Source: Pristiophorus japonicus (lineage: Eukaryota). Taken from it: 64,000 nt of DNA. Under the pieces are notes generated by a model. That model was not told where the DNA came from. It searched no databases and saw only the letters and a list, made by a program, of their open reading frames with translations. Shown here piece after piece: positions 851 to 51,000 of this stretch. Where the stretch lies: assembly GCF_044704955.1 (NCBI RefSeq), contig NC_091995.1, forward strand, positions 76,508,001 through 76,572,000. Direction: 5' to 3'. The first letter of the stretch is position 1. Every line of letters begins with the position of its first letter. Both the position numbers and the translations under genes were made by a program.

Positions 851-1065
851 ATTCAAATCTTAAAATCAAATTAAATCTTGGTTAAATCAAAACTCACTGC
901 ACCAGCTCTCACAGGACCTCAAACCAGTGGAACACTTTACAGCCTTCAATCTTTCTTTCCTCCTCAATCTATAAACTCTTAAAACCCAATCTCCAGGTCA
1001 CCTAATCAGGGCGTTGGTGAGACCACACCTGGAGGACTGCGTCTCCGTATTTAAGGAAGGATATA

Positions 1066-1728
1066 TGCAGCCCCTGTTTCATTATTTGAAGGGGCTGCTC
1101 CTCAATTTCTGGTTGCACTTCAGTCCCACACTCCTGATCTTTGGGCACCCTGTGCGGAGGGGAGCGGGTAGGTCCGAGGGCCTCCTCGTAGGACTGCTCC
1201 TGGGCACGTCCAAGGGGGCCATCAGCCGGTCCAGGCAGCGGGCGGTCGAGGGGGTCGTTCAGCCTGACTGCCTGCCTCTCTTCCGCGCGTACATCCGGGC
1301 CAGGGTGTCCTTGGAGATGGAGCACGCGGTGTCCACCGGTACGCTCGCGGCCTTCTGTGAGAGGTGGGCGCCGGAGGGACTGGAGTGCATTATTACCCCC
1401 GGCAACCAAATTTTAATTTGATATAAACTTGAGCAGCATTTGGTATGCCTGTTCATACAATCCTTCCAGCTCGTACTCAAAAGCTATGTTGTCGATGGTG
1501 GGATCCCGAAGACCAAATTAAAGTTTAATTTGTTTATTGCCGGATTTTTAGTGTCCCCCTCCCCTTTTATAGGGGGCACTTGTAAATTATATGATTTTAA
1601 TGCCCCAAAAAAAAATCACAAAAAGGAAAAAAAAAACAAAAAAAAAGAGGGCAGGTATAAGTGTCTGGAGTGTCCCCCAGATTGGAGGGCACTCGATCTA
1701 ATGTTTGTTTTGTACTCCCTAAAAGAGT
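1066..1728 (+). mobile_element. 5'-truncated Tx1-clade LINE (ORF2 C-terminus and 3'UTR) with 16-bp TSD
   Basis: QPLFHYLKGLLLNFWLHFSPTLLIFGHPV...RARVSLEMEHAVSTGTLAAFCERW resembles the Tx1 ORF2 end; stop at 1419-1421; TSD tttaaggaaggatata (1050-1065) / tttagggaaggatata (1729-1744). Confidence 0.8.
1422..1514 (-). pseudogene. TRADD: Captured fragment resembling the TRADD death domain
   Basis: Minus-strand translation [31 protein letters not shown] resembles recalled human TRADD [31 protein letters not shown]; frame bounded by TAA stops, no splice sites. Confidence 0.8.
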
Positions 1729-2449
1729 TTTAGGGAAGGATATACTTGCATTGGAGGCAGTTCAGAGAAGGTTCACTAGGTTGATTCCTGAGATGAAGGG
1801 GTTGTCTTATGAAGAAAGGTTGAGCAGGTTGGACCTATACCCATTAGAGTTTAGAAGACCGAAAGGTGATCTTATTGAAACATCAACGATTCTGAGGGAG
1901 CTTAACAGGGTACTTGTCGAGAGTTTGTTTTTCCTCGTGGGGGAATCTGGAACTAGGGGGCATAGTTTCAGAATAAAGGGTTGACCATTTAAAATAGAAA
2001 TGAGGAGGAATTTCTTCTCTGTGTGGGTCGTGAATCTTTGGACTGGGGCATTGAATATATTTAAGGTAGAGATAGACAGATTTTTGAATGATATGGAAGT
2101 CGAGAGTAATGGGGAGCCCAAGATCAGATCGGCCATGGTCTTATTGAATGGCAGAGCAGGCTCGAGGGGTCAAATGGCCGACTCCTGCTCCTATTTCTTC
2201 AGTTCACTTGTACCAAATTTTCTCTCCCTATTCTTTGCAACTTTGGTGCTACCCTGCAGTGTGGGCCTTGAGGTTTCTCAATTATTTTCTTGCGGTACTG
2301 TGTGTGACAGCGAGTTGGCTGTGGCATTTGTGGAAACAGCTGATGAGGTTTATATTCCAGTCTCTAACCTTCCCAACTGGACCCCTGCTACCGACCCAGC
2401 TTCTGCCTCAGGCGGTGTGCAAGCTGCACAAGCATGTAGGGACAGGCAT

Positions 2450-7392: not shown

Positions 7393-7538
7393 GGTTATGT
7401 TACTGGACTAGTAATCCAGAGACCTGTACCAATGATTTAGAGACATGGGTTCAAATCCCACCACAGCTGGTGGGAAATTTAAATTCAGTTAATTAAATAA
7501 ATCTGGAATAAAAAGCTAGTATTGTTAATGGTGACAAT

Positions 7539-10500
7539 GGGCCTAACTTTGAAGGTATGAGACGTGAATTGGCTAGGATAGATTGGCGAATGATATTTAA
7601 GGGGTTGCCTGTGGATGGGCAATGGCAGACATTTAGAGACCGCATGGATGAAAAAATACAACAATTGTACATCCCTGTCTGGCGTAAAAATAAAAAAGGG
7701 AAGGTGGCTCAACCGTGGCTATCAATGGAAATCAGGGATAGTATTAAAGCCAAGGAAGTGGCATACAAATTGGCCAGAAATAGCAGTGAACCCGGGGACT
7801 GGGAGAAATTTAGAACTCAGCAGAGGAGGACAAAGGGTTTGATTAGGGCAGGGAAAATGGAGTACGAGAAGAAGCTTGCAGGGAACATTAAGACGGACTG
7901 CAAAAGTTTCTATAGATATGTAAAGAGATAAAGGTTAGTAAAGACAAACGTAGGTCCCCTGCAGTCAGAATCAGGGGAAGTCATAACAGGGAACAAAGAA
8001 ATGGCGGACCAATTGAACAAGTACTTTGGTTCGATATTCACTGAGGAGGACACAAACAACCTTCCGGATATAAAAGGGGTCAGAGGGTCTAGTAAGGAGG
8101 AGGAACTGAGGGAAATCCTTATTAGTCGGGAAATTGTGTTGGGGAAATTGATGGGATTGAAGGCCGATAAATCCCCAGGGCCTGATGGACTGCATCCCAG
8201 AGTACTTAAGGAGGTGGCCTTGGAAATAGTGGATGCATTGACAGTCATTTTCCAACATTCCATTGACTCTGGATCAGTTCCTATGGAGTGGAGGGTAGCC
8301 AATGTAACCACACTTTTTAAAAAAGGAGGGAGCGAGAAAACAGGGAATTATAGACCGGTCAGCCTGACATCAGTAGTGGGTAAAATGATGGAATCAATTA
8401 CTAAGGATGTCATAGCAGTGCAGTTGGAAAGAGGTGACATGATAGGTCCAAGTCAGCATGGATTTGTGAAAGGGAAATCATGCTTGACAAATCTTCTGGA
8501 ATTTTTTGAGGATGTTTCCAGTAGAGTGGACAAGGGAGAACCAGTTGATGTGGTATATTTGGACTTTCAGAAGGCTTTCGACAAGGTCCCACACAAGAGA
8601 TTAATGTGCAAAGTTAAAGCACATGGGATTGGGGGTAGCGTGCTGACATGGATTGAGAACTGGTTGTCAGACAGGAAGCAAAGAGTAGGAGTAAATGGGG
8701 ACTTTTCAGAATGGCAGGCAGTGACTAGTGGGGTACCGCAAGGTTCTGTGCTGGGGCCCCAGCTGTTTACACTGTACATTAATGATTTAGACGAGGGGAT
8801 TAAATGTAGTATCTCCAAATTTGCGGATGACACTAAGTTGGGTGACAGTGTGAGCTGCGAGGAGGATGCTATGAAGCTGCAGAGCGACTTGGATAGGTTA
8901 GGTGAGTGGGCATGGCAGATGAAGTATAATGTGGATAAATGTGAGGTTATCCACTTTGGTGGTAAAAACAGAGAGACAGACTATTATCTGAATGGTGACA
9001 GATTAGGAAAAGGGGAGGTGCAACGAGACCTGGGTGTCATGGTACATCAGTCATTGAAGGTTGGCATGCAGGTACAGCAGGCGGTTAAGAAAGCAAATGG
9101 CATGTTGGCCTTCATAGCGAGGGGATTTCAGTACAGGGGCAGGGAGGTGTTGCTACAGTTGTACAGGGCCTTGGTGAGGCCACACCTGGAGTATTGTGTA
9201 CAGTTTTGGTCTCCTAACCTGAGGAAGGACATTCTTGCTATTGAGGGAGTGCAGTGAAGGTTCACCAGACTGATTCCCGGGATGGCAGGACTGACCTATC
9301 AAGAAAGACTAAATCAACTGAGCTTGTATTCACTGGAGTTCAGAAGAATGAGAGGGGACCTCATAGAAACGTTTAAAATTCTGATGGGTTTAGACAGGTT
9401 AGATGCAGGATGAATGTTCCCAATGTTGGGGAAGTCCAGAACCAGGGGTCACAGTCTAAGGATAAGGGATAAGCCATTTAGGACCGAGATGAGGAGAAAC
9501 TTCTTCACCCAGAGTGGTGAACCTGTGGAATTCTCTACCACAGAAAGTTGTTGAGGCCAATTCACTAAATATATTCAAAAAGGAGTAAGATGAAGTCCTT
9601 ACTACTAGGGGGATCAAGGGGAATGGCGAGAAAGCAGGAATGGGGTACTGAAGTTGCATGTTCAACCATGAACTCATTGAATGGCGGTGCAGGCTAGATG
9701 GGCCGAATGGCCTACTCCTGCACCTATTTTCTATGTTTCTATGTTTGCCCAACCCCATTTTGTGGCGCACTTACCTTAAGTGCGCTGACTTTGCGCGCTG
9801 GAAACGGCGCTGGAAAAAAGGGGCCCCATCCTGGCCGCTCTCCGAGTCCCCGGAGTCCCGGCGTGGTGTGCATTCTGAAGTGGGGGGGGGGGGGGGGGGG
9901 GGGGGGGCGGAGCAACAGGCCAGCACCAAAAACATTGCCGGCACCTGCGCGCATGCGCAGTGAAGTCTGCGCGCATGCTCCTGCCCTCTCAGCGTGTCCT
10001 GCGGGGCGTGAGCAGGACCCGATGCTCGCAGCCTCTATCACTGGCCAAAGGGACGCCCCAACCTTCGTCGCACTCTATCCATGGCCGAGTGGCCTCCTGC
10101 ACCTGCCGGCCGCTGAGTTCGTGGGCGAAGTAGGACTTCGGTTTTATTTCTTATTTATTGATTGTGCTTGAAAGTTTTGATTGGGGGGGGGGGGGGGGGG
10201 AGGAGGAGAAGAGTTTTTCTAGCCGCCGCCCCCCCCCCCCGGATGACATCGCGGCCAGCAGCTCGCATTTCTCTGGTTGCTCTGCGTAGCTGCCCGCCCC
10301 CGGTGACATCATGGTAGGATTTACTTCATTTTTATTAGCATTTTAATTGTTTGAGCTTTTCCTTGCAATGTTTGGTGCTTGGTTGTTGAGGTCCTCTCCA
10401 GTTCCCTTCCCTCCCCTATCCCTGCCCAAATGTGCGCTGCTTTTTCTTCACTGCCCGCAAGATTTTTCAGAGCTGGCCACATACGCTGACCTAAATCGAG

Positions 10501-21339: not shown

Positions 21340-21363
21340 ATTTCTCACACAATCGCCCAATAG
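21340..21363 (-). CDS. PHF5A: PHF5A (SF3b subunit, PHD finger protein 5A) coding exon 2, 24 nt
   Basis: Minus: ttttttatgttacag|CT ATT GGG CGA TTG TGT GAG AAA T|gtaagt = (A)IGRLCEK(C); phase matches exon 1. Confidence 0.93.
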
Positions 21364-21654
21364 CTGTAACATAAAAAAAGAACTCAAGTCAGATGAGGAT
21401 TGACGTTTTGCAATGAAGTCTGATTTATTTTTTGCTGAGATATAAGTAGTATTTGTGAAATGCATGAGAGAAACTTTCTAACAGGCACAGGTTCAGTCAG
21501 GCAACGGAGGGTGTGGGGAGAGTAGACAAAGAGAACAATTTCTGACATTCACTTATTTACAGCAATACGAGTGAACAGTGAAAATTTCCCCCTGGGCGTG
21601 GTGCCCTGCTTGCATTGTACACTCTCTTGAAACAGTGATCTACAGGGAGCACGA

Positions 21655-22013
21655 TCGCCCCTCCCTATCTCTGTAGTCTCCTTCAGCCTCACAATTTCCC
21701 CCCTCGCCCCTGGATGTCTGCGCTCCTCAAATTCTGCCTTCTTGAGAATCCCCGATTACAATCGCTCAACCATCGGTGGTCGTGCCTTCAGCTGCCTGGG
21801 CCCCAGGCTCTGGAATTCCCTCCCTAAACCTCTCTGTTTCTCTTTCCTCCTTTAAGATGCTCCTTAAAATCTACCTCTCTGACCAAGCTTTTGGCCATCT
21901 GGCGTAATTTTTTATGCGACTCGGTGTCAAATTAATTTTTGTGTGTCTTATAACACTCATGTGAAATGCCTTGGGACATGTTACTACTGCTATATAAATA
22001 CAAGTTGTTGTTG
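21655..22013 (+). mobile_element. L2 LINE 3' end
   Basis: Homologous to 60-497; tail gctatataaatacaagttgttgttg. Confidence 0.75.
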
Positions 22014-23319
22014 TACTAACGGACTATATTCAACAGCAGCAGGGTGAGACTTTTACGAATGAACCTTTGTGCACTGCACAAACAAATAGATACATGGCAC
22101 TGCCCAAGAAAAGGGGGAAAGAAAAGTTCAGGCAGAGCGATCCATCTGGGTCTGCCCTGCCCATGTCCCGATGACCAGTTCGGAACAGTACTGATGACAC
22201 TATGGGAGCAGGATGGTGCTTGGCGGAAGAAATTACAAACAGTGGGAATTTTAGTTTCAGCAACAAGCTAGAGTGGCATGGCTAAGTAGGGACTTGGAAT
22301 CAGGTCACCGGCTGAGCTCACGGAAAAAACAGTTACCTTTAGGTGAGCTTCTGGTTCTTTAACCTTGTCCTGCCAGGTACAGCCATAAAACTTCCAAGGC
22401 AGAATGGAGTCTGTCACATTTCTCTCAACCATTTTGTAGCTCATCACCCGCTTCCTGTAGTTATCGAATGCAGACACAGCAGTTATACTGCCGGCTACCC
22501 GCAGGCAAGCACAGATTATTATATAGAACTGTTTCAAGTATACTGTATACCAGTGGTCTGACATTAGTCATTAGAGCATAGTTGGAGTACTGTGTTCAGT
22601 TTTGGAATCCACACTATAGGAGGAAAGAGAAAGGGCAAGTGCAGACTCACGAGGATGATGCCTGGCATAAAAACAGATGATTTCATTCGAACAGAGCAGA
22701 TTGAGGTGTAATTTGATAGAGGCATTTAAAATTATAACGGGAGCAGACACAGAGTAGACAGAATTAATTCCACTAATTAAATCCCATCATGGCTTGCCCC
22801 TCCCCATCTTGGTTCCTTCCTCCAGCCTTACAATGCTCAGAACACTTTATTCCTCTGACTCGCAGCTCTTGTGCAACACCTCCCCTTCACCCCACCGTCG
22901 GCAGTTATGCCTTCAGCTGTCTGCTCCCCACATTCAGGAATCCCCACCCCCCCCCACCCCGAACACATCTGCCCCCTCCTGCAAGACTCTCCTTAAAGCC
23001 CATCTCTTCCACCAAGTTTTTAGTTACCCCTCTTAGGATGTCCTCCTTTGGCTTGACATCTATGTTCATCTGATTATGCCTACATTAAAAGCACTATATT
23101 AAGACAAGCTGGTGTTGATTTAGGGGTCTAGAAGAAGGGGACATAGATACAAGATTAAATGCAAGAGATTTAGGACAGAGAGCAGGAGAAACTTTACAAA
23201 AAGTGTTGTGAGGCTGTGGAATTCATTGCCAGAGTTAGTGACTGAAGCAGCAACCAGGCCAATGTTTCAAGAATAAGTTAAGGGAATAAATGGATATACG
23301 AACAGAGAAAGACAAATGA

Positions 23320-23598
23320 AAGACTTGGATTTATATAGAGCCTTTTATGACCACCAGACATCTCAAAGCGCTTTACTGCCAATGAAGTACTTCTGAAGTG
23401 TAGTCACTTTGGTATGTAGGAAACGTGGTAACCAATTTGCGTACAAACAGCAATGTGATAATGACCAGTTAGTATTTTTTGGTTTTGTTATGTTGATTGA
23501 GGGATAAATATTGGCCAAGACACTGGGGATAACTCCCCTGCTCTTCTTCAAAATACTGCCATGGGATCTTTTACGTCAACTTGAGAGAGCAGACGGAG

Positions 23599-23629
<31 letters not shown>

Positions 23630-23762
23630 ACCTCCGACAGTGCAGCACTGCACTGGCGTGTTAGCCGATATTTATATGCTCAAGTTCCTGGAGTGGGACT
23701 TGAACCCACAACCTTGTGACTCAGAGTCGAGAGAGTGCTAACCACTGAGCCACAGGTGACAC
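23320..23762 (-). mobile_element. Full-length Deu-domain tRNA SINE
   Basis: A/B-box head, tgccatgggatctttt core, L2-like tail. Confidence 0.8.
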
Positions 23763-24229
23763 AGAGCCGGAACATGGGATGAAAACCATTGCTTACAAGG
23801 AAAGCAGTTAGTGGAGACTTGGCACTTCCCAGCGAGAGAAAAAAATCCTGAGGAAGAATGCATCTCCAGAAGCCCCACAGGTTTGGCTCCTTGCAGCAAA
23901 CTCTATCAGTCCTGGGAAGGGGTCTTGGCCAAGGAATGGACTTGATACTCAAGCACCCCCATGGTTAATTTATGGACCAAGCTACAACCAGATACAGACT
24001 TTTAAAAAGGAAAGGCACCCTTTTTAATGTCAAAATGACCAGGTGTGTCCAAAAATCAGCCGCACAGAGCCCCGGCAACTGTGGTCCATTTGTGCTTCTA
24101 TTTCTTATGGATTGGTTTGCCCAGTTTGAATTTCATGGTATTGTCGCATTGGTGAATTAAATCTAAATGAGAACAAAATCATCGATTAGCATCACCGACT
24201 TGACATCTATGCAAATTAATGGAAACATT

Positions 24230-24957
24230 GGCCCAGATTTTCTTGCAGTGGTGAGATCGGATATGTAGCTGCCTGGCACGCTGATGAGAAGCTCCTCCAT
24301 ATTTTCCTGCAATCTAATTAGAATACGCTGCAGCGAAGGTGGCGGAAAGTCGGGAGCGGCGAGGACATGTTACTCCCAGCGACTCACCGAACATATAAAC
24401 AGGGCGCCACAGTAAAGTCTGAAGACTGGCATTTATGTGAAGCCGAGTTGTGGCACTCATCAAATGCGCTGCTTCCACCAGGCAGATCTCTTTCTTCTCA
24501 GTGGAATCGGCCGGCCAGCTTCTGGTTTAGACAACGCTGTCAAAGCATCACGAATTTGAGCATGGAGATTTCAAGGGTGTGCGAAGCCCGTTCTCCAGCC
24601 TCAGAGTGGCTCATGTTTAACCGTGCAAGCAATTAAAAACACAAATCAGCTATAAGTCATGCCACTAGAGCCATTATTGACGTGTGAGTGGCAGCGGCGT
24701 GCAAACTGGCGACAATCCAGCAAAATCGCGATCATCGTGGTTCGGGGAGGGGGGGGGGGGGTGTGGGGCGGAGAGAGAGAGAGAGAGAGGGAGGGGGAGC
24801 TATGAAAATTTGTCACCAGTTGCTTTTGACAAGAGGAAAATGTAGAGCGCCACAAGTTATTTACTCCACGATATCCTCTTTCTTTTGCACCGCTCAAGGG
24901 TCCTGATGATATAGATGGCCAATTAAAATGCCGCAAGTCCCCGGGAAAATACGGACC
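24230..24957. mobile_element. Old Harbinger-like MITE
   Basis: Imperfect termini ggcccagattttc / gaaaatacggacc resemble the TIRs of 13934-14495; no clear TSD. Confidence 0.35.
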
Positions 24958-25337
24958 AGCGATTTAAACTAGATATGTAGCTCCTGAAGCTACACAGCGC
25001 ACACCTATGTGGCCAAAGACAAAAAGCTTGGACATCCGTGAACTAGAGAGTGAGTGATCAAAGGATCACAATTTTATACAGCGGTTGATTCCAATCCTAA
25101 TATTCTCAACAAAACACTAACTGTTGTTAGTTTTACAGCTATAAGTAAAATACTGAAGGTTACAGCTAAAACATCAACCTTCCTTTCAGATGCTTATCAG
25201 TAGTTCCAGCATTCTATTTGTTTACGTTCCAACAATTAAGCATTTTCTTTCCAGCTCCACAAATCAAATACCTTTGCCACATTTTCTCTCCTTCATATGG
25301 TTTTAGAGGATCAATCTGTCAATGCTACTGTCCTGTC

Positions 25338-25922
25338 ATCATCATCATAGGCAGTCCCTCGAAATCGAGGAAGACTTGCTTCCACTCTAAAAGTGAGTTC
25401 TCAGGTGACTGTACAGTCCAATACAGGAATTACAGTCTCTGTCACAGGTGGGACAGACAGTGGTTGAAGGAAAGGGTGGGTGGGGAGTCTGGTTTGCCGT
25501 ATGCTCCTTCCGCTGCCTGCGCTTGTTTTCTGCATGTTCTCGGCGACGAGACTCGAGGTGCCCAGTGCCCTCCCGGATGCTCTTCCTCTACTTAGGGTGA
25601 TCTTTGGCCAGGGATACCCAGGTGTCGGTGGGGAGGCTTTGAGGGGGTCCTTCAAATGTTTCCTCTGGCCACTTGGGGCTCGCTTGCCGTGTAAGAGTTC
25701 CAAGTAGAGCGCTTGCTTTGGGAATCTTGTGTCGGGCATGCGAACAATGTGGCCCGCCCAACGGAGCGTGCGGCAAACCAGATTCCCCGCCCACCCTTTC
25801 CTTCAACAACTGTCTGTCCCACCTGTGAGAGAGACTGTAATTTCAGTATTGGACCGTACAGTCACTTGAGAGCTCACTTTGAGTGGAAGCAAGTCTTCCT
25901 CCATTTCAAGGGACTGCCGATG
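25338..25922. mobile_element. Two RTE LINE 3' ends joined head-to-head (minus 25338-25760, plus 25762-25922)
   Basis: MPDTRFPKQALYLELLHGKR on minus; both ends carry the ggaagcaagtcttcctc...gggactgcc tail. Confidence 0.8.
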
Positions 25923-26122
25923 AGTTATCTCATTTCTCTCTCCTACCATTCTTAAATAATGTAGTGTCGTTAGCAATTTTCCAATCTAACAAGCACAATT
26001 CTCAATTCAAGAGAGCTTTGAAAGATTCTAACTAATGTACAGATACTTATTCAAATATAGTGGGTATCTATACATTAATAGATGAAAGATCTTACAGCTG
26101 AATGCACTTCCTGACAACCTTA

Positions 26123-26525
26123 GGTCAGCTGTGGCTCAGTGGGTAGCACACTCGCCTCAGAATCAGCAGGTTGTGGGTTCAAGTCCCACTCGAGAGACTT
26201 GAGGACTAGGCTGACACTCAAGTGCTGCACTGTTGGAGGTGCCGTCTTTCGGATGAGACGTGAAACCGAGGCCCGTCTGCTCTCTCAGGTGGACGTAAAA
26301 GATCCCATGGCACTATTTCAAAGAAGAGCAGGGGAGTTATCCCCGGTGTCCTGGGATAATATTTATCCCTCAATCAACATAGCAGAAAAAGATTGTCTGG
26401 TAATTATCACATTGCTGTTTGTGGGAGTTTGCTGTGTGCAAATTGGCTGCTACATTTCCCACATTACAACAGTGACTACACTCCAAAAGTACTTCATTGG
26501 CTGTAAAGCGCTTTGAGACATCTAA
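26123..26525 (+). mobile_element. Full-length Deu-domain tRNA SINE (SacSINE1-like)
   Basis: A box tggctcagtggg, B box ggttcaagtcc, Deu core aaagatcccatggcactatttcaaagaagagcaggggagttatccccggtgtcctgg, L2-like tail. Confidence 0.8.
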
Positions 26526-26789
26526 AAATGTTCTTATGCTCATGATCTTATTGAATGGAGGAGCAGGCCCGAGAGGTCGTATGGCCTACTCCTTATTCTT
26601 ATGTTCTCACCTTGCCTTACCAACTTCAAAAGATTATAGATCTGGTGAATAGGAATCAAAAAGTAAAGATACATTTCACAATTTAAAATGGGGAGACTAA
26701 ATTATACCTACACACTCTGGTCTAATTATTCCTCCGCAGCAACCCCCCCCTCCCCACACAAACATGCTCTAAATGCACTTCACCTGAAC

Positions 26790-27220
26790 ACAAGAATTAG
26801 GAGCAGGAGTAGGCCCCTCGAGCCTACTCCGCCATTCAGTGAGATCATGGCTGATCTTCTACCTCAACTCCACTTTCTTGCACTATCCCCATATCCCTTG
26901 ATTTCCTTAATATTCAAGAATCTAGCGATGTCTGTCTTGAATATATTCAAAGTCTGAGCCTCTACAGCCTTCTGGGATAGAGAATTCCAAAGATTCACCA
27001 CCCTCTGAATGAAGAAATGCCTCGTTATTTCATTCCTAAATGGCCAACCCCTTATTCTGAGACTGTAAGCCCTGGTTCGAGGCTCCCCAGCTGGGGGAAA
27101 CATCCTCTCTGCATAAGTATTTTGCATGTTTCAATGAGATCACCTCTCATTCTTCTAAACTCTAAAGAGAATATGAGTCTAGTCTACTCAATCTCTCCTC
27201 AGCCCAGGAATCAGTCTACA
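26790..27220 (-). mobile_element. CR1 LINE 3' end
   Basis: ERMFPPAGEPRTRAYSLRIRG...IKGYGDSARKWS. Confidence 0.85.
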
Positions 27221-27239
27221 TACAAGTCTGCCCTCCATG

Positions 27240-27663
27240 GGCCTGTGTTGACTGGAGTATAGAAGAATGAGAGGGGTTCTCAGAGAAACATATAAAATAC
27301 TGATAGGACTGGATAGGTTAGGTGCAGGAAGAATGTTCCCGATGTTGGGGAAGTCCAGAACCAGGGGTCACAGTCTAAGGACGAGGGGTAAGCCATTTAA
27401 GACCGAGAGGAGGAGAAACTTCTTCATCAGAGAGTTGTTAACCTGTGGAATTCTCTACCACAGAGAGTTGTTGATGCCAAGTCATTGGATATATTCAAGA
27501 GGGAGTTAGATGTGGCCCTTACGGCTAAAGGGATCAAGGGGTATGGAGAGAAAGCAGGAAAGGGGTGCTGAGGTGAATGATCAGCCATGATCTTATTGAA
27601 TGGCGGTGCAGGCTCGAAGGGCCGAAGGGCCTACTCCTGCACCTATTTTCTATGTTTCTATGT
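27240..27663 (+). mobile_element. CR1 LINE 3' end, about 290 bp inside PHF5A intron 1
   Basis: MRGVLRETYKIL...MFPMLGKSRTRGHS; (TTCTATGT)n tail. Confidence 0.9.
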
Positions 27664-27955
27664 GTGAGGGCGATTGACTTTCACACGTGCAGACTGGATT
27701 CAGCGCAAGGGCCAAAGTGGGGCTAGTTATGGATCAGTTTGGGGGATATGTGGGGTGGGTATTCCCAGCTATTCCCTGCTGGCTGATTTTTATGTCCTAG
27801 CTCTTTATGAAACTCGACAAGAACTCGCTGCAACTTCTCGCGGCCGAGCTCAGGGGCCTGGCCCGGCCCGGCCCCACCGGTAGAATGGACAGTCGCGGTG
27901 CTCCGTGTGTAGTTATATCCCGGGGAAGGGGTTCTCGCTCCCCTCGCTCACTCAC

Positions 27956-28007
27956 CCACTCCGGCCTGTTTCCGACAGAAGATCAAGTCAGGATGATGCT
28001 TCGCCAT
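27956..28007 (-). CDS. PHF5A: PHF5A coding exon 1 (52 nt from ATG)
   Basis: Minus: ATG GCG AAG CAT CAT CCT GAC TTG ATC TTC TGT CGG AAA CAG GCC GGA GTG G|gtgagt = [17 protein letters not shown], the conserved PHF5A N-terminus. Confidence 0.97.
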
Positions 28008-37168: not shown

Positions 37169-37542
37169 CCCTTCTGCCAGTGGCGGGGCAGGATAGGCAG
37201 AGTTTTATTTCGGGTGAGGATATACGAATTTATAATGGCAACGTATCAAAATAAGGATAGAATATATATGGAGTGGATTATGTTTGCATACCTTGGTCCC
37301 ATTCCCTCCTGCTTCCAATCCCACTTAGCTGATGACCATTCTTGGTCTTGGGTGCCTTTGTGCAATGCCACGGGAGAATGGTGTATTCTATAAATGTAAT
37401 AAACGCTGGTGTGTTATAACCACAAAATACTTGTACTTCAAAAGCACAAGTGTTGCATTAATTAGGGATACTTATTGGTTTGGTTTTCATCTACACATAT
37501 TCACAACTCATTTGTAACATTTAGTTTTGCCTTCTACGATAG

Positions 37543-37801
37543 ATTGGACAAACCACTGACCTTGTCAGAAAAGATCGTGTATGGTCATCTCGATGACCCT
37601 GTCAACCAGGCGATTGGTCGTGGGGAGACCTATCTGCGCCTCCGACCTGACCGGGTGGCCATGCAGGATGCCACAGCTCAGATGGCCATGCTTCAGTTCA
37701 TCAGCAGCGGGTTGCCCAGAGTTGCCGTGCCATCTACAATCCACTGTGATCACTTAATCGAGGCTCAGATTGGTGGAGACAAAGATCTGGCAAGAGCCAA
37801 G
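37543..37801 (+). CDS. ACO2: ACO2 coding exon 3 (259 nt)
   Basis: gatag|(R)[19 protein letters not shown]...[13 protein letters not shown]...[23 protein letters not shown]|gtaatc; active-site QDAT and DH motifs. Confidence 0.97.
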
Positions 37802-37877
37802 GTAATCTATTGTGTGCAGCACTTTGCTGTGTTTTGATGGTGTGATGAAATGCTATTTAAATGCAAATATTCTCCGA

Positions 37878-39545
37878 TCATCATCACAGGCGGTCCCTCG
37901 AGGAAGACTTGCTTCCATTCCAAAAGTGAGTTCTCAGGTGACTGTACAGTCCAATATAGGAATTACAGTCTTTGTCACAGGTGAGACAGACAGTGGTTGA
38001 AGGAAAGGGTGGGTGGGGGAGTCTGGTTTGTCGCACACTCCTTCCGCTGTCTGCGCTTGATTTCTGCATGCTCTCGGCGACGAGACTCGAGGTGCTCAGC
38101 GCCCTCCCGGATGCTCTTCCTCCACTTAGGGCGGTCTTTGGCCAGGGATTCCCAGGTGCCGGTGGGGATGTTGCACTTTATCAAGGAGGTTTTAAGGGTG
38201 TCCTTGAAATGTTTCCTCTGCCCACCTGGGACTCGCTTGACGTGTCGGAGTTCCGACTAGAATGCTTGCTTGGGGCATCTCGTGTTGGGCATACGGACAA
38301 TGTGGCCCGCCCAATGGAGCTGGTCGAGTGTGGTCAGTACTTCAATGCTGGGGATGTTAGCCTGATCGAGAACACTGATGTTGGTGCGTCTATCCTCCCA
38401 GAATCTTGCAGAGCAGCGCTGGTGGTACTTCTCCAGCGCTTTGAGGTGTCTAGTGTATATAGTCCATGTCTCTGAGCCATAAAGGAAGGCAGGTATCACT
38501 ATAGGCCATAAGCTTGGTGCCAGATTTGAGGTCCTGGTCTTCAAACACTCTCTTCCTTAGGTGACCGAAGGCTGCGCTGGCACACTGGATGCGGTGTTGG
38601 ACCTCGTCATCGATGTCTGCCCTTGCTGATAGTAGGCTCCCGAGATATGGAAAATGGTCCACATTGTCCAAGGGAACGCTGTGGATTTTGATGACTGTGG
38701 GGCAGCGCTGTGTGGCTGGGTCAGGTTTGTGGAGGAGCTTTGTCTTACGAATATTTAGTGTAAGACGCATGCTTTCGTACGTCTCGGTGGAGATGTTGAC
38801 GATGGCTTGGAGTTCGGCCTCTGTGCGCAGACGCAAGCGTTGTCCACATACTGTAGTTCGATGACTGGAGCAGATGGAATCCCCACCGATGCACTAAATA
38901 TGACCTCATCTCTCATCTGCAAGGAGGAGAGCATGCCAGGGGAACTCGGATGCCGTAACCGTGACAAAAAAAGGGGACAAGTCCGACTGCGGCACCTACA
39001 GAGGAATCTCCTTGCTGTCAGCCACTGGGATAATCATTGCAAGAATTCTCCTCAACCATCTTCCCCCTGTGGCTGGAGGGATCCTCCCAGAGTCACAATG
39101 CAAATTCCGTCCACTAAGAGGTACAACGAACATGATCTTCTCCGCGTGACAACTACAAAAGAAATGCAGGGAACAGCACCAACCATTGTACATGCATGGC
39201 CTCCTTTGACCTCACAAAGGCCTTTGACACTGTCAACCGTGAGGGTCTGTGGAGCGTCCTCCTCTGTTTCGGCTGCCCCCAAAAGTTGTCACCATCCTCC
39301 GCCTGCTCCACGGTGACATGCAAGCCGTGATCCTGACCAACGGACCCACCACCAACCCAATCCACGTCCAGACCGGGGTCGAGCAGTGTGTCATCGCACC
39401 AACGCTGTTCTCAATCTTCCTCGCTGCAATGCTCCATCTCATTCTCAACCAACTCCCCGCTGGAATAAAACCAGTGGGAACCTGCTCAACCTTCGCCGTC
39501 TCCAGGCTCGATCCAAAGTCGGCCCATCCTCTGTCATCGAACCTC
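37878..39545 (-). mobile_element. RTE LINE with inverted 5' segment and 48-bp TSD
   Basis: 3' part on minus 37878-~38866; upstream RT part on plus ~38867-39545 (ADGIP, YRGISLLS, GVEQCVIAPTLF); TSD 37830-37877 / 39546-39593. Confidence 0.88.
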
Positions 39546-40224
39546 TGTTTTGATGGTGTAATGAGATGTTATTTAAATACAAATATTCTCCGAGCATACA
39601 ACCGTGGTGTTGTGCACCACATAATATGGTCTCTCTCGCATGTCTCTATTGTTCTTATGTTGCTTGTTTCTCTCTGCATCTCCTCTTCAGCTTCTTAACT
39701 TCTCCTTTGTCTCTGTCTCTTCTGTTTCTCTCTCTCTGCTCTTTTCTTTGGATTGTGGGTATCCACTGAGCATTCTCTTGCCATCACCTTAATCCCATCG
39801 CACTTCTATCTCATCGCACCTCTGACGTACACCTCTCATCCTCAAATTACTTGCTTCATCTGTTTCCCCCAAGGAGGCATTGTTGCTTTCAGAATGCAAT
39901 TTGTTCTTGAAATAAATCCAATTGGAATGAGGACTCCCCTCTCTCCTCTGTCTCCCCCCCGCCCCCTTCCCCACGTTACAAGTTATTTTAGGGATTGATT
40001 TCTATATTCTAAAAATGTTAAACATTGAACATGGCAAATTATAGCTGCAGATTACAAATGAACTAAAGTGTGCCGAAAGATTTTCCTCATTCGTTAGTAT
40101 ATTTGTGACATAACCTCTGACCAAGCGACAGAAGCAAATATTGAGCAAATGATTAGTCTGAGCTGATCTCAGTAACTTGCTTTTCACACTGATCACTTAA
40201 CTGTCTTTTTTTTTTACTTTGTAG

Positions 40225-40317
40225 GAAATGAACGAAGAAGTTTATAATTTCTTGGCGACGGCGGGAGCAAAATATGGAGTTGGCTTCTGGAAACCCGGCT
40301 CTGGTATCATCCACCAG
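40225..40317 (+). CDS. ACO2: ACO2 coding exon 4 (93 nt)
   Basis: tttgtag|[31 protein letters not shown]|gtgacg. Confidence 0.97.
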
Positions 40318-40506
40318 GTGACGTGTCAAAAATCAATCCTCCCTCGCTCGCTCTTTAAAGTTTTCTCCACAGCCCCTTCCTCTCGGCCTCTCCTTACCCT
40401 CCCGTCTTCCCCCTCCCCACCCACCCAAGAGCGACCGCATTAATTAACAATTTTGGTTTCCTATTGCGTACACCAAACGGCGCTCAGCAGGGTCTCTGAG
40501 ACTGTA

Positions 40507-40962
40507 ACAACATAAGAAATAGGAACAGGAGTAGGCCATCTGGCCCTTCGAGCCTGGTCCGCCATTCAGTAAGATTATGGCTGATCTGATCTTGAGCTTA
40601 GCTCTACTTCCCTGCCCTCTCCCCATAAGCCTTGACTCCCTTTATCTTTCAAAAATCTGTCTGTCTATCCACTTTAAATATATTCAATGATCCAGCCTCC
40701 ACAGCTCTCTGGGGTAGAGAATTCCACAGATTCATGACCCTCAGAAGAAATTCCTCCTCATTTCCGTTTTAAATGGGCGACCCCTTATTCTGAAACTATG
40801 TCCCTAGTTCTAGATTCCCCCACATCCTCTCTGCATCTATCCTGTCGAGCCCCCTCAGAATCTTATACCTTTCAATAAGATCACCTCTCATTCTTCTAAA
40901 CTCCAATGAGTATAGGCCCAGTCTGCTCAAACTTTCTTTATAAGACAACCCCTTTATCCCGG
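40507..40962 (-). mobile_element. CR1 LINE 3' end
   Basis: PGIKGLSYKESLSRLGLYSLEFRRMRGDLIE; tail cataagaaataggaacaggagtaggcc (reverse). Confidence 0.85.
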
Positions 40963-43434
40963 GCTCCTCTTTACCTCTTTTACTCTTTCCAAATGCAGCT
41001 GTGAGCAGAAGCAATTGCCAAGCAGTTCCCACTTCGGATGAAATCCCTGACCGCCGTCGCAAAGCTGCTAGCGTAGCAGCGCAGAGGGTTTTGGCTGACT
41101 CTTGCACATGCCAGCCATGAGCGGTTAACGCTCGCCGCTTACTCAGTGCCATTTTACAAATGAACGCGTAGCTGTTACGAATTGGATCTCACCACTGGAA
41201 TTTGAGGCTGAATAGGATGCATCGATGGCAGCTTTGATCACAGCAGGGTGAATGGCAGCACAGCCTCAGCAGCTTTGCCTGTCCCGCCTGCTTCAATTAA
41301 CAGCCTTTAATTTATTCCCCCCCCCCCCGCCCCCCCCTAGAGGGGCTGACTCGCTTCGGCTTAGTTCCTCTGTCTGGCAGTCCAGCCGTGACTGGGAATT
41401 CGCATTGTAGGGAACTGCAGGTGAGACCCTACATCCCCTGAATCCACAGAGCAAGGAGTAAAAGGCTGGATTCCCAGAAGCTTTAGCCTGCCAAGCTAAG
41501 GATTCCTAATTACAAACATTTCAGATGTACACCGCATTCCAGATGGTGTTGGGACCATTTGCTCCAAAGTGCTGTGACCAGGCACCTTTCCACAGAGTCT
41601 GTTCGAGTGGTTGGGCTATCAGGAATTTCAGACTTGCAAACGGAATATTCATGTATATAAATATTCAAATGTGCAAAGCTTTAGGTGTAACTGCACAGCC
41701 AGATCAAGTTCACAGCCTACTGATCATTTTCATTTGTGGAATGTTAATGTTGCGAACATGCGAACAATGACTGACAGGTAAAGACCCTCTGGTCCATCGA
41801 GCCTGTCCCACACAATTGCGATACCTTGTGTATTCCAATATATACAGTCCACCCCACCCGAAACCATGTGATCTCCTGGGAGAGGCAAAAAAACATTTAA
41901 AAAAAAATCCCCAGAAAAATCTGGGAAATTCCCCTCTGACCCATCTAGGCGATTGAAACTAGTCCAGGAGATCACTCTGGCCATTAAATTCCTGCAGTAC
42001 CTACCTTCTGTAAGCGGTGATCGCCGCCGCAGCCAGAAACAAATCCAGCTATCGCTTGAAGGAATTCAGCAAGTCTGCATCCACCACATGAAACAGCAGC
42101 TTGTTCCAGAGGTCTACTGTTCTCTGGGAAAAGGACCACCTCCTGACGTCTAACCTAGATCTAGCCTTATACCCCTGGTGCTGCCTAACTTATTTAATTG
42201 AAATAAACTGTCAGCTGGAACACTGTCTTATCAACTATCTTATAAAGGTCAATCATATCTTTCCCTCCCCCTCCCCCCCCCCCCCCCCCCCCCCCCAGCC
42301 CCCATAGTCTACACTGCTCTAAGGTATAGAGTCCAAACGTTCTTAGCCTAGGTGCAGCGACTAGCTCCTCTCGAGGCTCTGAACATCATTGTGTGATCGC
42401 TCACTGAGCTGTGTGAGAGCAATGACTGGCTTATCTATTTAGTTTCTATTTCTTACGGTGGTCTGCTTTAGTTTTGCATGGTGTTCCTTCTACTTCCCAG
42501 ATAGCCCAACTGAAAAGGGAACATGAGGCCATTCAGCCCCTCAAGCCTGTTCCACCATTTCAGTTCGATCATGCCAGATCTGTTAATTTCAATTGCCCAC
42601 ATTGGTTCCATTATCCCTTAATACCCTTGCCTTACAAAAATATATTAATCTCAGTTCTGGAATTTTCAATCAACTGCTTTTTGGGGGAAGAGTTCCAGAT
42701 TTCTACTATCTTGTGTGTGTGAAGTGCTTCCTGACATCACCTCTGGCTCTAATTTTAAGGTTAAGCCCCGTTATTCGAGACTTTCCCATAGCCAGCAATA
42801 TTTTTGGTTTTATAAATGGGGTATATAAGAGTGTCAGAGTAAAGTCGTAATGAATTTACGGAATGCATTGGTTAAGCCACAGATTGGGTACTCTGTGCAG
42901 TTTTGGTCACCCTATTATACACAGGATATTAAAACCAGAGAGAGTGTAGGAGATTCACTGGGATAACACCAGCAATGGGAATCTATAGTTATGAGGAGGG
43001 ACTATTTCTACTCAAACAGAGAAGGCTAAGAGAAGATTTAATAGAGGCCTTAAATTTGTATGGGGTATTATAGAATGAATAGAAGATTTTTCCTCTGGGA
43101 GTCAGTACTGAGGGGTTATCAATTTAAACGTTTGAGGCGGAGGAATGTAGTCAGAAGCAATTTCTTCAACGGATTGCTTTGCAGCGAATGGTTGAGACAG
43201 AGATCGTTTCATTTTGTTAGGAAAATTGGATAAATGTGGGAGAGAGCAGGGCCATGGGATTAGGTTTACCTTGCTCTAGGAAAGAGCCAGCACGCATACG
43301 ATGGCCTCCTGTGTTGTACATTACTGTGGTTCTATGGGCCAGGCTCGACAGCGATGTTAACTAGTCTGCCAGCACTCGCTGTATAAATTCATAGAGCGAT
43401 AATAGAGGGTGATCAGCTCCTGTGGAACTGTAAA

Positions 43435-43840
43435 GAAAGACTTGCATTTCTGCAGCGTCTTTCGCGACCACCGATCGTTTCAAAGCACTTTACAGCCAAT
43501 GAAGTACTTTTTGAGGTGCAGTCACTGTTGTAATGTGGGAAACGCGGCAACAAATTTGCGCACAGCAAGTCCCCATAAACAGCAATGTGATGATCAGATA
43601 AACTGTTTTTATGTTGATTGAGGAATAAATATTACCCAGGACACCGGGGGGTGACTCCCCTGCTCTTCTTCGAAATAGTGCCGTGAGATCTTTTACATCC
43701 ACCTGAGAGAGCAGACGGGGCCTCAGTTTAACGTCTCATCCGAAAGACGGCACCTCTGGCACTGTAGCACTCTCTCAGCACTGCACTGGAGTGTCGGTCC
43801 AGATATATATGCTCAAGTCACTGGAGTGGGACTTGAAACT
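43435..43840 (-). mobile_element. Deu-domain SINE
   Basis: B box, Deu core and L2-like tail; ends ~100 bp before exon 5. Confidence 0.8.
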
Positions 43841-43925
43841 CCAGCAAGAGATTGTCATGCTGCGGAGAAGAAAGTAAAAGTTGCACTGAGACGGCAGCCT
43901 CCACTGTGTACTGACAAACATGTGA

Positions 43926-44120
<195 letters not shown>

Positions 44121-46804: not shown

Positions 46805-49800
46805 ATAAGAACATAAGAATTAGGAACAGGAGTAGGCCATCTAGCCCCTCGAGCCTGCTCCGCCATTCAATAAGATCATGGCTGATCTGGTCGTGGACTC
46901 AGCTCCACTTACCCGCCCTCTCCCCATAACCCTTAAAAATCTATCTATCTTTGACTTGAAAACATTCAATGACCTAGCCTCAACTGCTTCCTTGGGCAGA
47001 GAATTCCACAGATTCACAACCCTCTGGGAGAAGAAATTCTTTCTCAACTCGGTTTTAAATTGGCTCCTCTGTATTTTGAGGCTGTGCCCCCTAGTTCTAG
47101 TCTCCCCGACCAATGGAAACAAACTCTCTGCCTCTATCTTGTCTATCCCTTTCATGATTTTAAATGTTTCTATAAGATCACCCCTCATCCTTCTGAACTC
47201 CAAGGAGTAAAGACCCAGTCTACTCAATCTATCATCATAAGGTAACCCCCTCATTTCTGGAATCAGCCTAGTGAATCGTCTCTGTACCCCTTCCAAAGCC
47301 AGAATATCCTTCCTTAAGTACTTCAGGTGCGGCCTTACCAATAACTTATACAGTTGCAGCAACACCTCCCTGCTTTTGTACTCCATCCCTTTCGCAATGA
47401 AGGCCAACATTCCATTTGCCTTCCTGATTTCCTGATTACCTGCTGCACCTGCAAACTAACCTTTTGGGATTCATGTACAAGGACCCCCAGGTCCCTCTGC
47501 ACCACAGCATGTTGTAATTTCTCCCCATTCAAATAATATTCCCTTTTACTGTTTTTTTTTTTCCCAAGGTGGATGACCTCACACTTTCCGACATTGTATT
47601 CCATCTGCCAAACCTTAGCCCATTCGCTTAACCTATCCAAATCTCCTTGCAGCCTCTCTGAGTCCTCTACACAACCCGCTTTCCCACTAATCTTAGTGTC
47701 ATCTGCAAATTTTGTTGCACTACACTCTGTCCCCTCTTCTAGGTCATCTATGTATATTGTAAACAGTTGTGGTCCCAGTACTGATCCCTGTGGCACACCA
47801 CTAACCACTGATTTCCAACCCGAAAAGGACCCATTTATCCCGACTCTCTGCTTTCTGTTCGCCAGCCAATTCTCTATCCATGCTAATACATTTCCTCTGA
47901 CTCCGTGTACCTTTATCTTCTGCAGTAACCTTTTGTGTGGCACCTTATCGAATGCCTTTTGGAAATCTAAATACACCACATCCATCGGTACACCTCTATC
48001 CACCATGCTCGTTATATCCTCAAAGAATTCCAGTAAGTTAGTTAAACATGATTTCCCCTTCATGAATCCATGCTGCGTCTGCTTGATTGCACTATTCCTA
48101 TCCAGATGTCCCGCTATTTCTTCCTTGATGATAGTTTCAAGCATTTTCCCCACTACAGATGTTAAACTAACTGGCCTATAGTTACCTGCCTTTTGCCTGC
48201 CCCCTTTTTTAAACAGAGGCGTTACATTAGCTGCTCTCCAATCCGCTGGTACCTCCCCAGAATCCAGAGAATTTTGGTAGATTATAAACAAATGCATCTG
48301 CTATAACTTCCGCCATCTCTTTTAATACCCTGGGATGCATTTCATCAGGACCAGGGGACTTGTCTACCTTCAGTCCCATTAGTCTGTCCAGCACTACCTC
48401 CCTAGTGATAGTGATCATCTCAAGGTCCTCCCTTCCCACATTCCTATGACCAGCAATTTTTGGCATGGTTTTTGTGTCTTCCACTGTGAAGACGGAAGCA
48501 AAATAATTGTTTAAGGTCTCAGCCATTTCCACATTTCCCATTATTAAATCCCCCTTTTCATCTTCTAAGGGACCAACATTTACTTTAGTCACTCTTTTCC
48601 GTTTTATATATCTGTAAAAGCTTTTACTATCTGTTTTTATGTTTTGCGCAAGTTTACCTTCGTAATCTATCTTCCCTTTCTTTATTGCTTTTTTAGTCAT
48701 TCTTTGCTGTTGCTTAAAATTTTCCCAATCCTCTAGTTTCCCACTAACCTTGGCCACCTTATACGCATTGGTCTTTGATTTGATACTTTCCTTTATTTCC
48801 TTGGTTATCCACGGCTAGTTATCTCTTCTCTTGCCGCCCTTCTTTTTCACTGGAATATATTTTTGTTGCGCATTATGAAAGAGCTCCTTAAAAGTCCTCC
48901 ACTGTTCCTCAATTGTGCCACCGTTTAGTCCTTGTTTCCAGTCTACTTTAGCCAACTCTGCCCTCATCCCACTGTCGTCCCCTTTGTTTAAGCATAGTAC
49001 GCTCGTTTCTGACACAACTTCCTCATCCTCAATCTGTATTACAAATTCAACCATATTGTGATCACTCATTCCGAGAGGATATTTTACGAGGAGATCGTTT
49101 ATTTTTCCTGTCTCGTTACACAGGACCAGATCCAAAATGGCTTGCTCCCTTGTAGGCTCTGTTACATACTGTTCTAAGAAACAATCCCGTATGCATTCTA
49201 TGAATTCCTCCTCCAGGCTACCCCCTGCGATTTGATTTGACCAATCGATATGTAAAATCCCCCATAACTACTGCCGTTCCTTTTTCACATGCCTCCATTA
49301 TTCCCTTGATTATTGACTGTCCCACCATGAAGTTATTATTTGGGGGCCTATAAACTACGCCGACCAGTGACTTTTTCCCCTTACTATCTCTATCTCCACC
49401 CACAATGTTTCAACATTTTGTTCATTGGAGCCAATATCATCCCTCACAACTGCCCTGATATCATCCTTTATTAACAGAGCTACCCCACCTCCTTTCCCTT
49501 CTTGCCTATCTTTCTGAATCGTCAGATACCCCTGTATGTTTAATTCCCAGTCTTGGCCACCTTGCAACCATGTTTCTGTAATGTCCACCAAATCATACCC
49601 GTTTGTAATGATTTGTGCCGTCCACTCATTTACTTTATTTCGAATGCTGCGTGCATTTAGGTAGAGTGTTTTCATCCTAGTTTTTAAACCATGATTTTTA
49701 GTTTTTACCCCTCCTGCAGCCCTTTTAATATTCAGTGGCCCTTTTTGTTTCTTGCCTTTGGTTTCTCTGCCCTCCACTTTTACTCATCTCTTTTCTGTCT

Positions 49801-51000
49801 TTTGTTTTTGTCTCCTTTTTGTTTCCCTCTGTCTCCCTGTATTGGTTCCCATCCCCCTGCCATATTAGTTTAACTCCTCACCAACAGCACTAGCAAACAC
49901 TCCCCCTAGGACATTGGTTCCGTTCCTGCCCAAGTGCAGACCGTCCGGTTTGTACTGGTCCCACCTCCCCCAGAACCTGTTCCAATGCCCCACGAATTTG
50001 AATTCCCTCCCTGCTGCACCACTGCTCAAGCCACGTATTCATCTGTGCTATCCTGCGATTCCTACTCTGACTAGCACGTGGCACTGGTAGCAATCCAGAG
50101 ATTACTACTTTTGAGGTCCTACTTTTTAATTTAACTCCTAGCTCCTTAAATTCGTCTCGTAGGACCTTATCCCTTTTTTTTTTTTACCTATGTCGTTGGT
50201 ACCAATGTTCACCACAACAACTGGCTGTTCTCCCTCCCTTTTCAGAATGTCCTGCACTCGCTCGGAGACATCCTTGACCCTTACACCAGGGAGGCAACAT
50301 ACCAACCTGGAGTCTCGATTGCGGCCGCAGAAACACCTATCTATTCCCCTTATGATTGAATCCCCTATCACTATCGCTCTCCCACTCTTTTTTATGCCCT
50401 CCTGTACAACAGAGCCAGCCACGGTGCCATGAACTTGGCTGCTGTTGCTCTCCCCTGATGAGTCATCTCCCTCAACAGCACTCAAAACAGTGTATCTGTT
50501 TTGCAGGGGGATGACCAGATGGGACCCCTGCACTACCTTCTTTGTACTACTCTTCCTGCTGGTCTTCCATTCCCTAGCTGGCTGTGGATCCTTCTCATGC
50601 GGTAAGACCAACTCACTACACGTGCCACTTATGTCATTCTCAGCATCGTGGATGCTCCAGAGTGAATCCACCCTCAGCTCCAATTCCGCAACGCGGTCCA
50701 TCAGGAGATGGAGGCGGATACACTTCTTACACACGTAGTCGTCAGGGACACCGGAAGCGTCCCTGAGTTCCCACATGGCACAGGAGGAGCATATCACGTG
50801 ACCGAGCTCTCCTGCCATGCCTTAACCCTTAGATACCCTTAAATTGGTAATAACAATGTTACAGTTTACTTACTGATATAAAAATAAAAAGAAAAGCTAC
50901 ACACCAATCACTTACCCCATTGGCTGTGACGTCACCTTTTGATTCCTTTCTACTTTTTTGCTTTCTCTCCCGCTGTAGCTGCACCGGTACGCCTTTTATA
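46805..51000 (-). mobile_element. Essentially full-length CR1 LINE (4.2 kb; (GTTCTTAT)n tail family), frameshifted
   Basis: 5'UTR, ORF1 from 50818, ORF2 endonuclease (LYLNARSIRNK, ITETWL, VVYRPP, MGDF, SDHN) and RT (YRPVSLTS, PQGSVLGP, KFADD). Confidence 0.95.
49890..50818 (-). pseudogene. CR1 ORF1 (Cys-rich zinc finger plus SGNH esterase-like domain), frameshifted near 50170
   Basis: CSSC...CKKC zinc finger; VIGDSIIRG, CLPG, VVVNIGTND esterase blocks; continuation LPVPRAS in ORF 49890-50093. Confidence 0.85.

Follow-up and report, generated by a model that had tools for sequence, protein, structure and literature searches.

A 93-nt stretch of the death-domain coding sequence of TRADD is present in the 3′ end of a 5′-truncated LINE, in opposite orientation to the LINE and immediately after the stop codon of its ORF2. 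The fragment fills the apex of a hairpin that the LINE sequence is predicted to form across that stop codon, and the LINE is bounded by a target-site duplication. Protein comparison indicates that the fragment was copied recently from the TRADD gene of the host shark itself. A one-off templated insertion of a known kind, without function and at a structured site of the LINE 3′ end, is the reading that we favour somewhat over all others together, and on the best reading the site within the LINE was not random. The window referred to below is the whole 64-kb stretch of DNA that was analysed. Its features are as follows.

1007..1049, plus strand: left part of an old CR1-like element (blastn to other CR1-like copies in the window)
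1050..1065, plus strand: target-site duplication, 5′ copy (sequence comparison)
1066..1421, plus strand: 3′ end of ORF2 of a 5′-truncated L1/Tx1-like LINE (tblastn with P0155)
1399..1420, plus strand: left hairpin arm, consisting of the last ORF2 codons and the stop and holding the 9-mer 1412-1420 (folding computation)
1422..1514, minus strand: TRADD death-domain fragment, 93 nt (protein comparison; left boundary uncertain by 1 nt)
1514..1543, plus strand: right hairpin arm, holding the palindrome 1514-1532 (folding computation)
1544..1728, plus strand: rest of the LINE 3′ UTR, with predicted hairpins near 1550-1580 and 1651-1712, an A-rich tract and a terminus ending in T
1729..1744, plus strand: target-site duplication, 3′ copy (15/16 identical to the 5′ copy)
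1745..2179, plus strand: the same CR1-like element, resumed right of the LINE (68-76% to other copies in the window)
21340..21363, minus strand: PHF5A second coding exon (context)
27956..28007, minus strand: PHF5A first coding exon (context)
near 37466-37834, plus strand: aconitase (ACO2) exon (context)

Identity and boundaries of the TRADD fragment

The minus strand of window positions 1422-1514 reads as 31 uninterrupted codons, flanked in frame by one stop two codons upstream and another three codons downstream, and the 31-residue translation without frameshift given in the first-pass annotation was reproduced exactly. When the 31-mer was searched with phmmer against 177,635 distinct PDB sequences, nine matches were obtained at E ≤ 10. 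The four best, with E values between 3.7e-9 and 4.8e-9, were the human TRADD death domain, to which 19 of 30 residues were identical when counted from the printed alignment, and the next match after TRADD was RIPK1 at E 0.013. With RIPK1 this far behind TRADD (E 4e-9), the TRADD identity proposed for the fragment in the first-pass annotation holds. A Pfam search with the 31-mer matched no family. Among 1.84 billion cluster representatives, 23 matched the fragment at E 0.001, and the best of these (90%) was a cluster containing TRADD of the skate Amblyraja radiata.

The fragment was also compared with 19 TRADDs, comprising all 14 named chondrichthyan sequences at hand and five others, from at least 120 listed. 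The result showed that 25-30 of the 31 residues were identical in the chondrichthyan TRADDs (14/14 tested) and 22-25 in those of bony vertebrates (5/5 tested); Gly at fragment position 1 was found in every chondrichthyan sequence but in none of the five from bony vertebrates. Mustelus TRADD (P0043) and a shark TRADD (P0045), the latter probably from Pristiophorus, each matched at 30 of 31 positions. This match to two shark TRADDs and the shark-type Gly at position 1 bear out the earlier proposal that the fragment came from a host gene. It corresponds to residues 264-294 of P0045, which in a tree of 15 TRADD proteins falls outside the batoid clade, among unresolved shark branches. Full-length TRADD was found in related sharks. 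The sole amino-acid change is Arg to Leu at codon 16, one base away from one Arg codon; Leu at this position is absent from all 14 chondrichthyan TRADDs tested. Nonsynonymous divergence is about 1.4% (95% interval 0.04-7.9%, on an assumed ~71 sites). A single amino-acid change, no stop and no frameshift imply that the capture was recent. When 13 sequences were compared with P0045 over four regions of chondrichthyan TRADD, conservation was highest in the captured stretch (0.94 versus 0.76-0.84 identity), and thus no faster evolution of the captured region is seen at the protein level.

TRADD homology stops sharply at both ends of the fragment. The TRADD residues that lie outside it are Cys-Arg before and Gln-Cys after, where the window instead has Phe and Ser-Asn-stop. 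Whatever codons are used, the window could have no more than one further base in common with TRADD past the Gly end; past the Ile end there is none in register. At the stop-codon end, 2-3 nt match the next TRADD codon (Gln) one base out of register; this match sits at the end that would prime on TRADD mRNA and provides a weak lead. At the other end, the TRADD Gly codon begins with base 1514, which is at the same time the innermost base of a 9-bp repeat described below. The matches of two partial TRADDs begin at P0045 residues 229-231, which is what a start of the last TRADD exon at this point would produce, and the fragment (264-294) seems from these alignments to be internal to one exon, in which case RNA and DNA donors would be indistinguishable. 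The fragment has no target-site duplication, poly(A), polyadenylation signal or terminal structure of its own, a pattern that it shares with the class 2 templated insertions discussed below.

The host LINE, its stop-codon hairpin and the surrounding locus

The LINE spans approximately 1066-1728 and is a 5′-truncated piece of ~660 nt, not a whole element; no RT region lies in the window. An ORF2-like frame on the plus strand (975-1421) terminates in TGA at 1419-1421, exactly where the stop had been placed. The C-terminal 118 residues (505-622) of P0155, a protein relative of the LINE with 66-68% identity to the window piece, matched 1065-1418 by tblastn (66%, E 1e-39). P0155 is similar to LINE-1 ORF2p (E 1e-6) and gave RVT_1 and zf-RVT matches, both below the Pfam cut-off; its Atlas matches scored 0.96-0.97 to RVT_1/zf-RVT clusters, whereas an Atlas search with the window's own ORF2 piece was uninformative, with a best score of 0.87. 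A Pfam search with the window's piece alone gave no match. Judged through P0155, and by its target-site duplication and 5′ truncation, the LINE belongs with the L1-group non-LTR retrotransposons; the tools place the family no finer than L1-like, and Tx1 is a putative label. Six proteins among 814 candidates matched the ORF2 C-terminus, four of which were included in an alignment of its relatives. None of the six is a named Tx1 reference, and inspection found none that reads through from the stop into the 3′ UTR. Gene models from Rhincodon and Pristiophorus (P0157-P0160) contain pieces of this ORF2 C-terminus, probably through annotation artefacts or exonisation. Pieces of the LINE family in two Pristiophorus proteins support Pristiophorus japonicus as the probable host.

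The target-site duplication is 16 nt long, and the LINE was inserted into an older CR1-like element, splitting that copy in two. According to PMC4494074, some Tx1 families target transposons; the Tx1 features described in PMC3747384 and PMC4494074 are target preference and snRNA-derived heads, not the capture of coding fragments. The A-rich tract (1607-1647) is internal to the LINE, bracketed by a short GC stem and followed by ~80 nt of structured sequence, and the 3′ terminus ends in T residues without poly(A). At window positions 1716-1736, the LINE 3′ end and the 3′ duplication copy together make up a hairpin with a perfect 9-bp stem and a loop of 3 nt, the arms of which hold a telomere-type hexamer and its complement. 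Base 1733, the only mismatch between the duplication copies, is the change that perfects this hairpin, and the 5′ copy has at this position a base shared with two of the five other CR1 sites listed; the mismatch possibly arose by hairpin-templated correction. Inside ORF2, a perfect inverted repeat of 9 bp (1067-1075 / 1090-1098) has its foot at the 5′ truncation point, as if reverse transcription had ended on a cDNA snap-back.

The TRADD fragment is bracketed by a perfect 9-bp inverted repeat (1412-1420 / 1514-1522). Shuffling of the same flanks gave a bracketing repeat of at least 9 bp in 69 of 200,000 trials, and shuffling of the 14-15-nt AT-rich cores did so in 515 of 200,000, indicating that the repeat is not due to chance under a naive null. 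The positions given for it in the first-pass annotation were correct, but the repeat does not belong to the insert and instead forms the inner portion of a longer LINE hairpin. The LINE flanks alone (1399-1420 with 1515-1543) are predicted to form this hairpin, no base of the insert being needed. The flank duplex has a predicted energy of −16.6 kcal/mol as RNA (1 of 5000 shuffles equally stable) and −13.6 kcal/mol as DNA (0 of 5000). In the whole 3′ end, the outer GC stem (1399-1404 with 1538-1543) has a pair probability of 0.95-1.0 and the inner stem ~0.55. The left arm consists of ORF2 coding sequence, so that the hairpin is a feature of the LINE. The 9-mer is present again at 1524-1532, so that 1514-1522 can pair with either copy, and 1514-1532 is a perfect 9-bp palindrome with a 1-nt loop; the inner right arm could partly have been made by snap-back synthesis in the insertion event. 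The insert fills the hairpin apex exactly and leaves both arms intact. By post hoc arithmetic, a random site would lie within 5 nt of the apex in ~2% of cases, or of any of three apexes in ~6%. A search of Rfam gave four matches (E 1.4-3.8), all far below the gathering scores, and thus no known RNA family. The inverted repeat was also considered as the ends of a DNA transposon and rejected, because the arms include ORF2 codons and no duplication lies outside them.

PHF5A and ACO2 exons were found in the window as the first-pass annotation had reported, the two genes lying head to head (PHF5A, minus strand, 21340-28007; ACO2, plus strand, 37466-44050). A search with short motifs presumed to represent the later PHF5A exons found none between exon 2 and window base 1, which would make the LINE intronic; it is probably located in PHF5A intron 2, which would exceed 21 kb. 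A host PHF5A transcript, if made across the LINE, would read the fragment in the TRADD sense. The LINE copy itself lacks a 5′ end and a promoter. Antisense RNA against TRADD, which had been suggested as a possible product, is thus unlikely from this copy. Exonisation of the fragment was rejected: the minus strand between 1381 and 1600 has no AG preceded by at least 14 pyrimidines in 20 bases, and the frame is flanked by stops. Elsewhere in the window, a 67-bp fold-back inverted duplication (625-763; 94%, 5 nt between the arms) lies 300 bases left of the LINE. Three CR1-like open frames are long and nearly intact (7512-9254, 47338-50821 and 53267-55799), and two of them are near-identical in protein, suggesting a recently active CR1-like family.

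Origin of the insertion

For the favoured one-off templated insertion, the following course is proposed. The LINE 3′ end forms the AT-rich hairpin computed across the stop codon, and at its tip a DNA 3′ end of the LINE sense strand would be exposed, either by a polymerase stall in second-strand synthesis of the present integration or by a later break at the palindrome. This end would then be elongated by 93 nt on TRADD sequence. The simplest template is TRADD mRNA, copied by a LINE reverse transcriptase; extension of this kind would place antisense TRADD on the LINE sense strand, in keeping with the opposite orientations of ORF2 (plus) and the fragment (minus). Genomic TRADD DNA may have served as the donor instead. 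The new end would be rejoined to the right arm via end joining, perhaps with a few snap-back bases, since 1514-1532 is a perfect palindrome. Several points weigh against a one-off event. It rests on a prior and not on a copy count, and an insert placed exactly at the apex, between undamaged arms, would equally be expected from a recurrent stall site or from survival in an active master copy. The LINE parts on both sides are sense and colinear, so that simple twin priming fails, and two jumps would be required if the capture happened during the present integration. Known L1 templated insertions come mostly from DNA adjoining the target, unlike the TRADD fragment.

The best placed of the alternatives, although unlikely, is that an active LINE took up the fragment in its hairpin loop, the insert being tolerated since both arms survived, and that the present copy is a daughter of a TRADD-bearing subfamily. 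Colinear sense LINE parts are expected if the RNA template already carried the insert, which spared ORF2, the stop and both arms. CpG observed/expected is 0.67 in the ORF2 piece versus 0.44 in the window, like a young family, and family-level uptake of 140-235-bp host fragments is described for Drosophila telomeric LINEs (PMC13534243). However, no second copy of either the LINE or the TRADD fragment was found within the 64-kb window by blastn and tblastn. When proteins 40-130 residues long were searched with a 74-residue antisense frame across the left junction, no candidate emerged, a weak negative since frames of this kind are seldom predicted. At the protein level there is no sign of escape like that of nxf2/aub, the captured region being the most conserved part of chondrichthyan TRADD. 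TRADD is not known to act in transposon silencing, which also speaks against this reading. If it were true, sense transcripts of the subfamily would be antisense to TRADD mRNA.

Next in likelihood, and doubtful, is a LINE family with a cargo slot, in which the stop-codon hairpin loop would repeatedly load antisense fragments of host mRNAs, taken up via sense-strand priming on cellular RNA, and master copies would spread them. Likewise doubtful, and placed third, is recurrent capture as such, in which the hairpin repeatedly stalls a polymerase or is cut and varied antisense pieces of host mRNAs come to lie between its arms. The insertion exactly at the apex with the arms intact is consistent with this. 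The window contains six distinct perfect short-loop palindromes (seven rows, two overlapping), and two of the six are at the 3′ UTR and 3′ junction of the LINE; structure-linked, non-random switch sites have been proposed for a fungal LINE (PMC2104539). Against this, the capture is a single case with no other cargo, and a snap-back origin of the inner arms, if so, weakens the argument from the apex. Searches of open-licence PubMed Central and bioRxiv literature, at the level of titles and abstract openings for the most part, turned up no description of a coding fragment captured at the stop codon of a Tx1 element. A scan of bacterial and archaeal genomes gave one locus from 236 pattern matches; it is 30% identical without DNA similarity to the element and was rejected as a LINE relative, being a chance match.

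The first-pass annotation had proposed RT template switching or break repair. Templated capture agrees with this, and break repair or a second-strand jump fits; a first-strand switch, in which target-primed reverse transcription leaves the LINE RNA for a foreign RNA and then returns to it, does not, as TRADD is antisense, and is very improbable. Double jumps have been described (PMC2104539), and an RNA hairpin could pause the enzyme. However, first-strand switching joins both RNAs in the same orientation according to that paper, and with LINE and TRADD opposed, the donor would have to be an antisense transcript of TRADD or else the genomic template strand. An assembly chimera is scarcely credible: the surroundings are repeat-rich, but the tip of a hairpin would have to hold two false joins separated by 93 nt, the LINE has kept an intact target-site duplication, none of the 14 chondrichthyan TRADDs tested has the substitution found in the fragment, and the window is without any N.

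As a one-off, the insertion is a clean germline example of a LINE that acquired, at a hairpin, part of a distant mRNA in inverted orientation; it is relevant to second-strand synthesis in retrotransposition, a step that is poorly understood, but changes little. If many copies proved to be loaded, a vertebrate LINE would have a mechanism for site-specific gene capture, and this would be a candidate route for a retrotransposon to dampen TNF-receptor death signalling. A cargo slot, if true, would provide vertebrate LINE transcripts antisense to host genes such as that of the death-receptor adaptor TRADD.

Comparison with known systems

The class 2 templated sequence insertions (TSI/TSIP) described in PMC5110952 lack a duplication or poly(A) of their own. 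Like these, the TRADD fragment is a short copy of a distant transcribed sequence, and its junctions may likewise be of the end-joining type. The recipient here is the tip of a LINE 3′ hairpin after the stop codon, unlike theirs, which seemed random.

Non-canonical L1 insertions provide a second comparison. In long-read studies, 22 templated insertions were found among 3,611 solo L1s, mostly from near-target DNA (10.1101/2024.08.27.596794), and nine two-RNA L1 insertions, some opposite in orientation, were reported (PMC11702581). The present case resembles those of both studies in carrying less than 250 bp of foreign sequence within a LINE copy, opposite orientation being known among them. Their donors mostly adjoin the target or form one end of the insertion, whereas here a distant coding exon is internal, between colinear sense LINE parts, and the TRADD-bearing LINE copy differs from theirs in being germline-fixed in a shark.

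In Drosophila, telomeric LINEs have captured nxf2, piwi and aub fragments (20 families, at least nine events), from which piRNAs are made and with which host gene evolution accelerated (PMC13534243). Similar to the TART-nxf2 and piwi/aub captures, a short host coding fragment lies here in a LINE UTR with small-RNA potential. As that source describes them, the Drosophila captures are in the family consensus, concern piRNA-pathway genes, yield piRNAs and show a faster captured region; here, in contrast, one promoterless copy holds the region that is most conserved among those compared in chondrichthyan TRADD.

Finally, chimeric retrocopies of the U6/L1 type and MINE, as described in PMC2104539, share with the present case a LINE and a copy of a cellular RNA within one target-site duplication, and they also have structure-linked switch points. 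In those retrocopies the partners are in the same orientation with the cellular part in 5′ position, whereas the TRADD fragment is antisense and internal.
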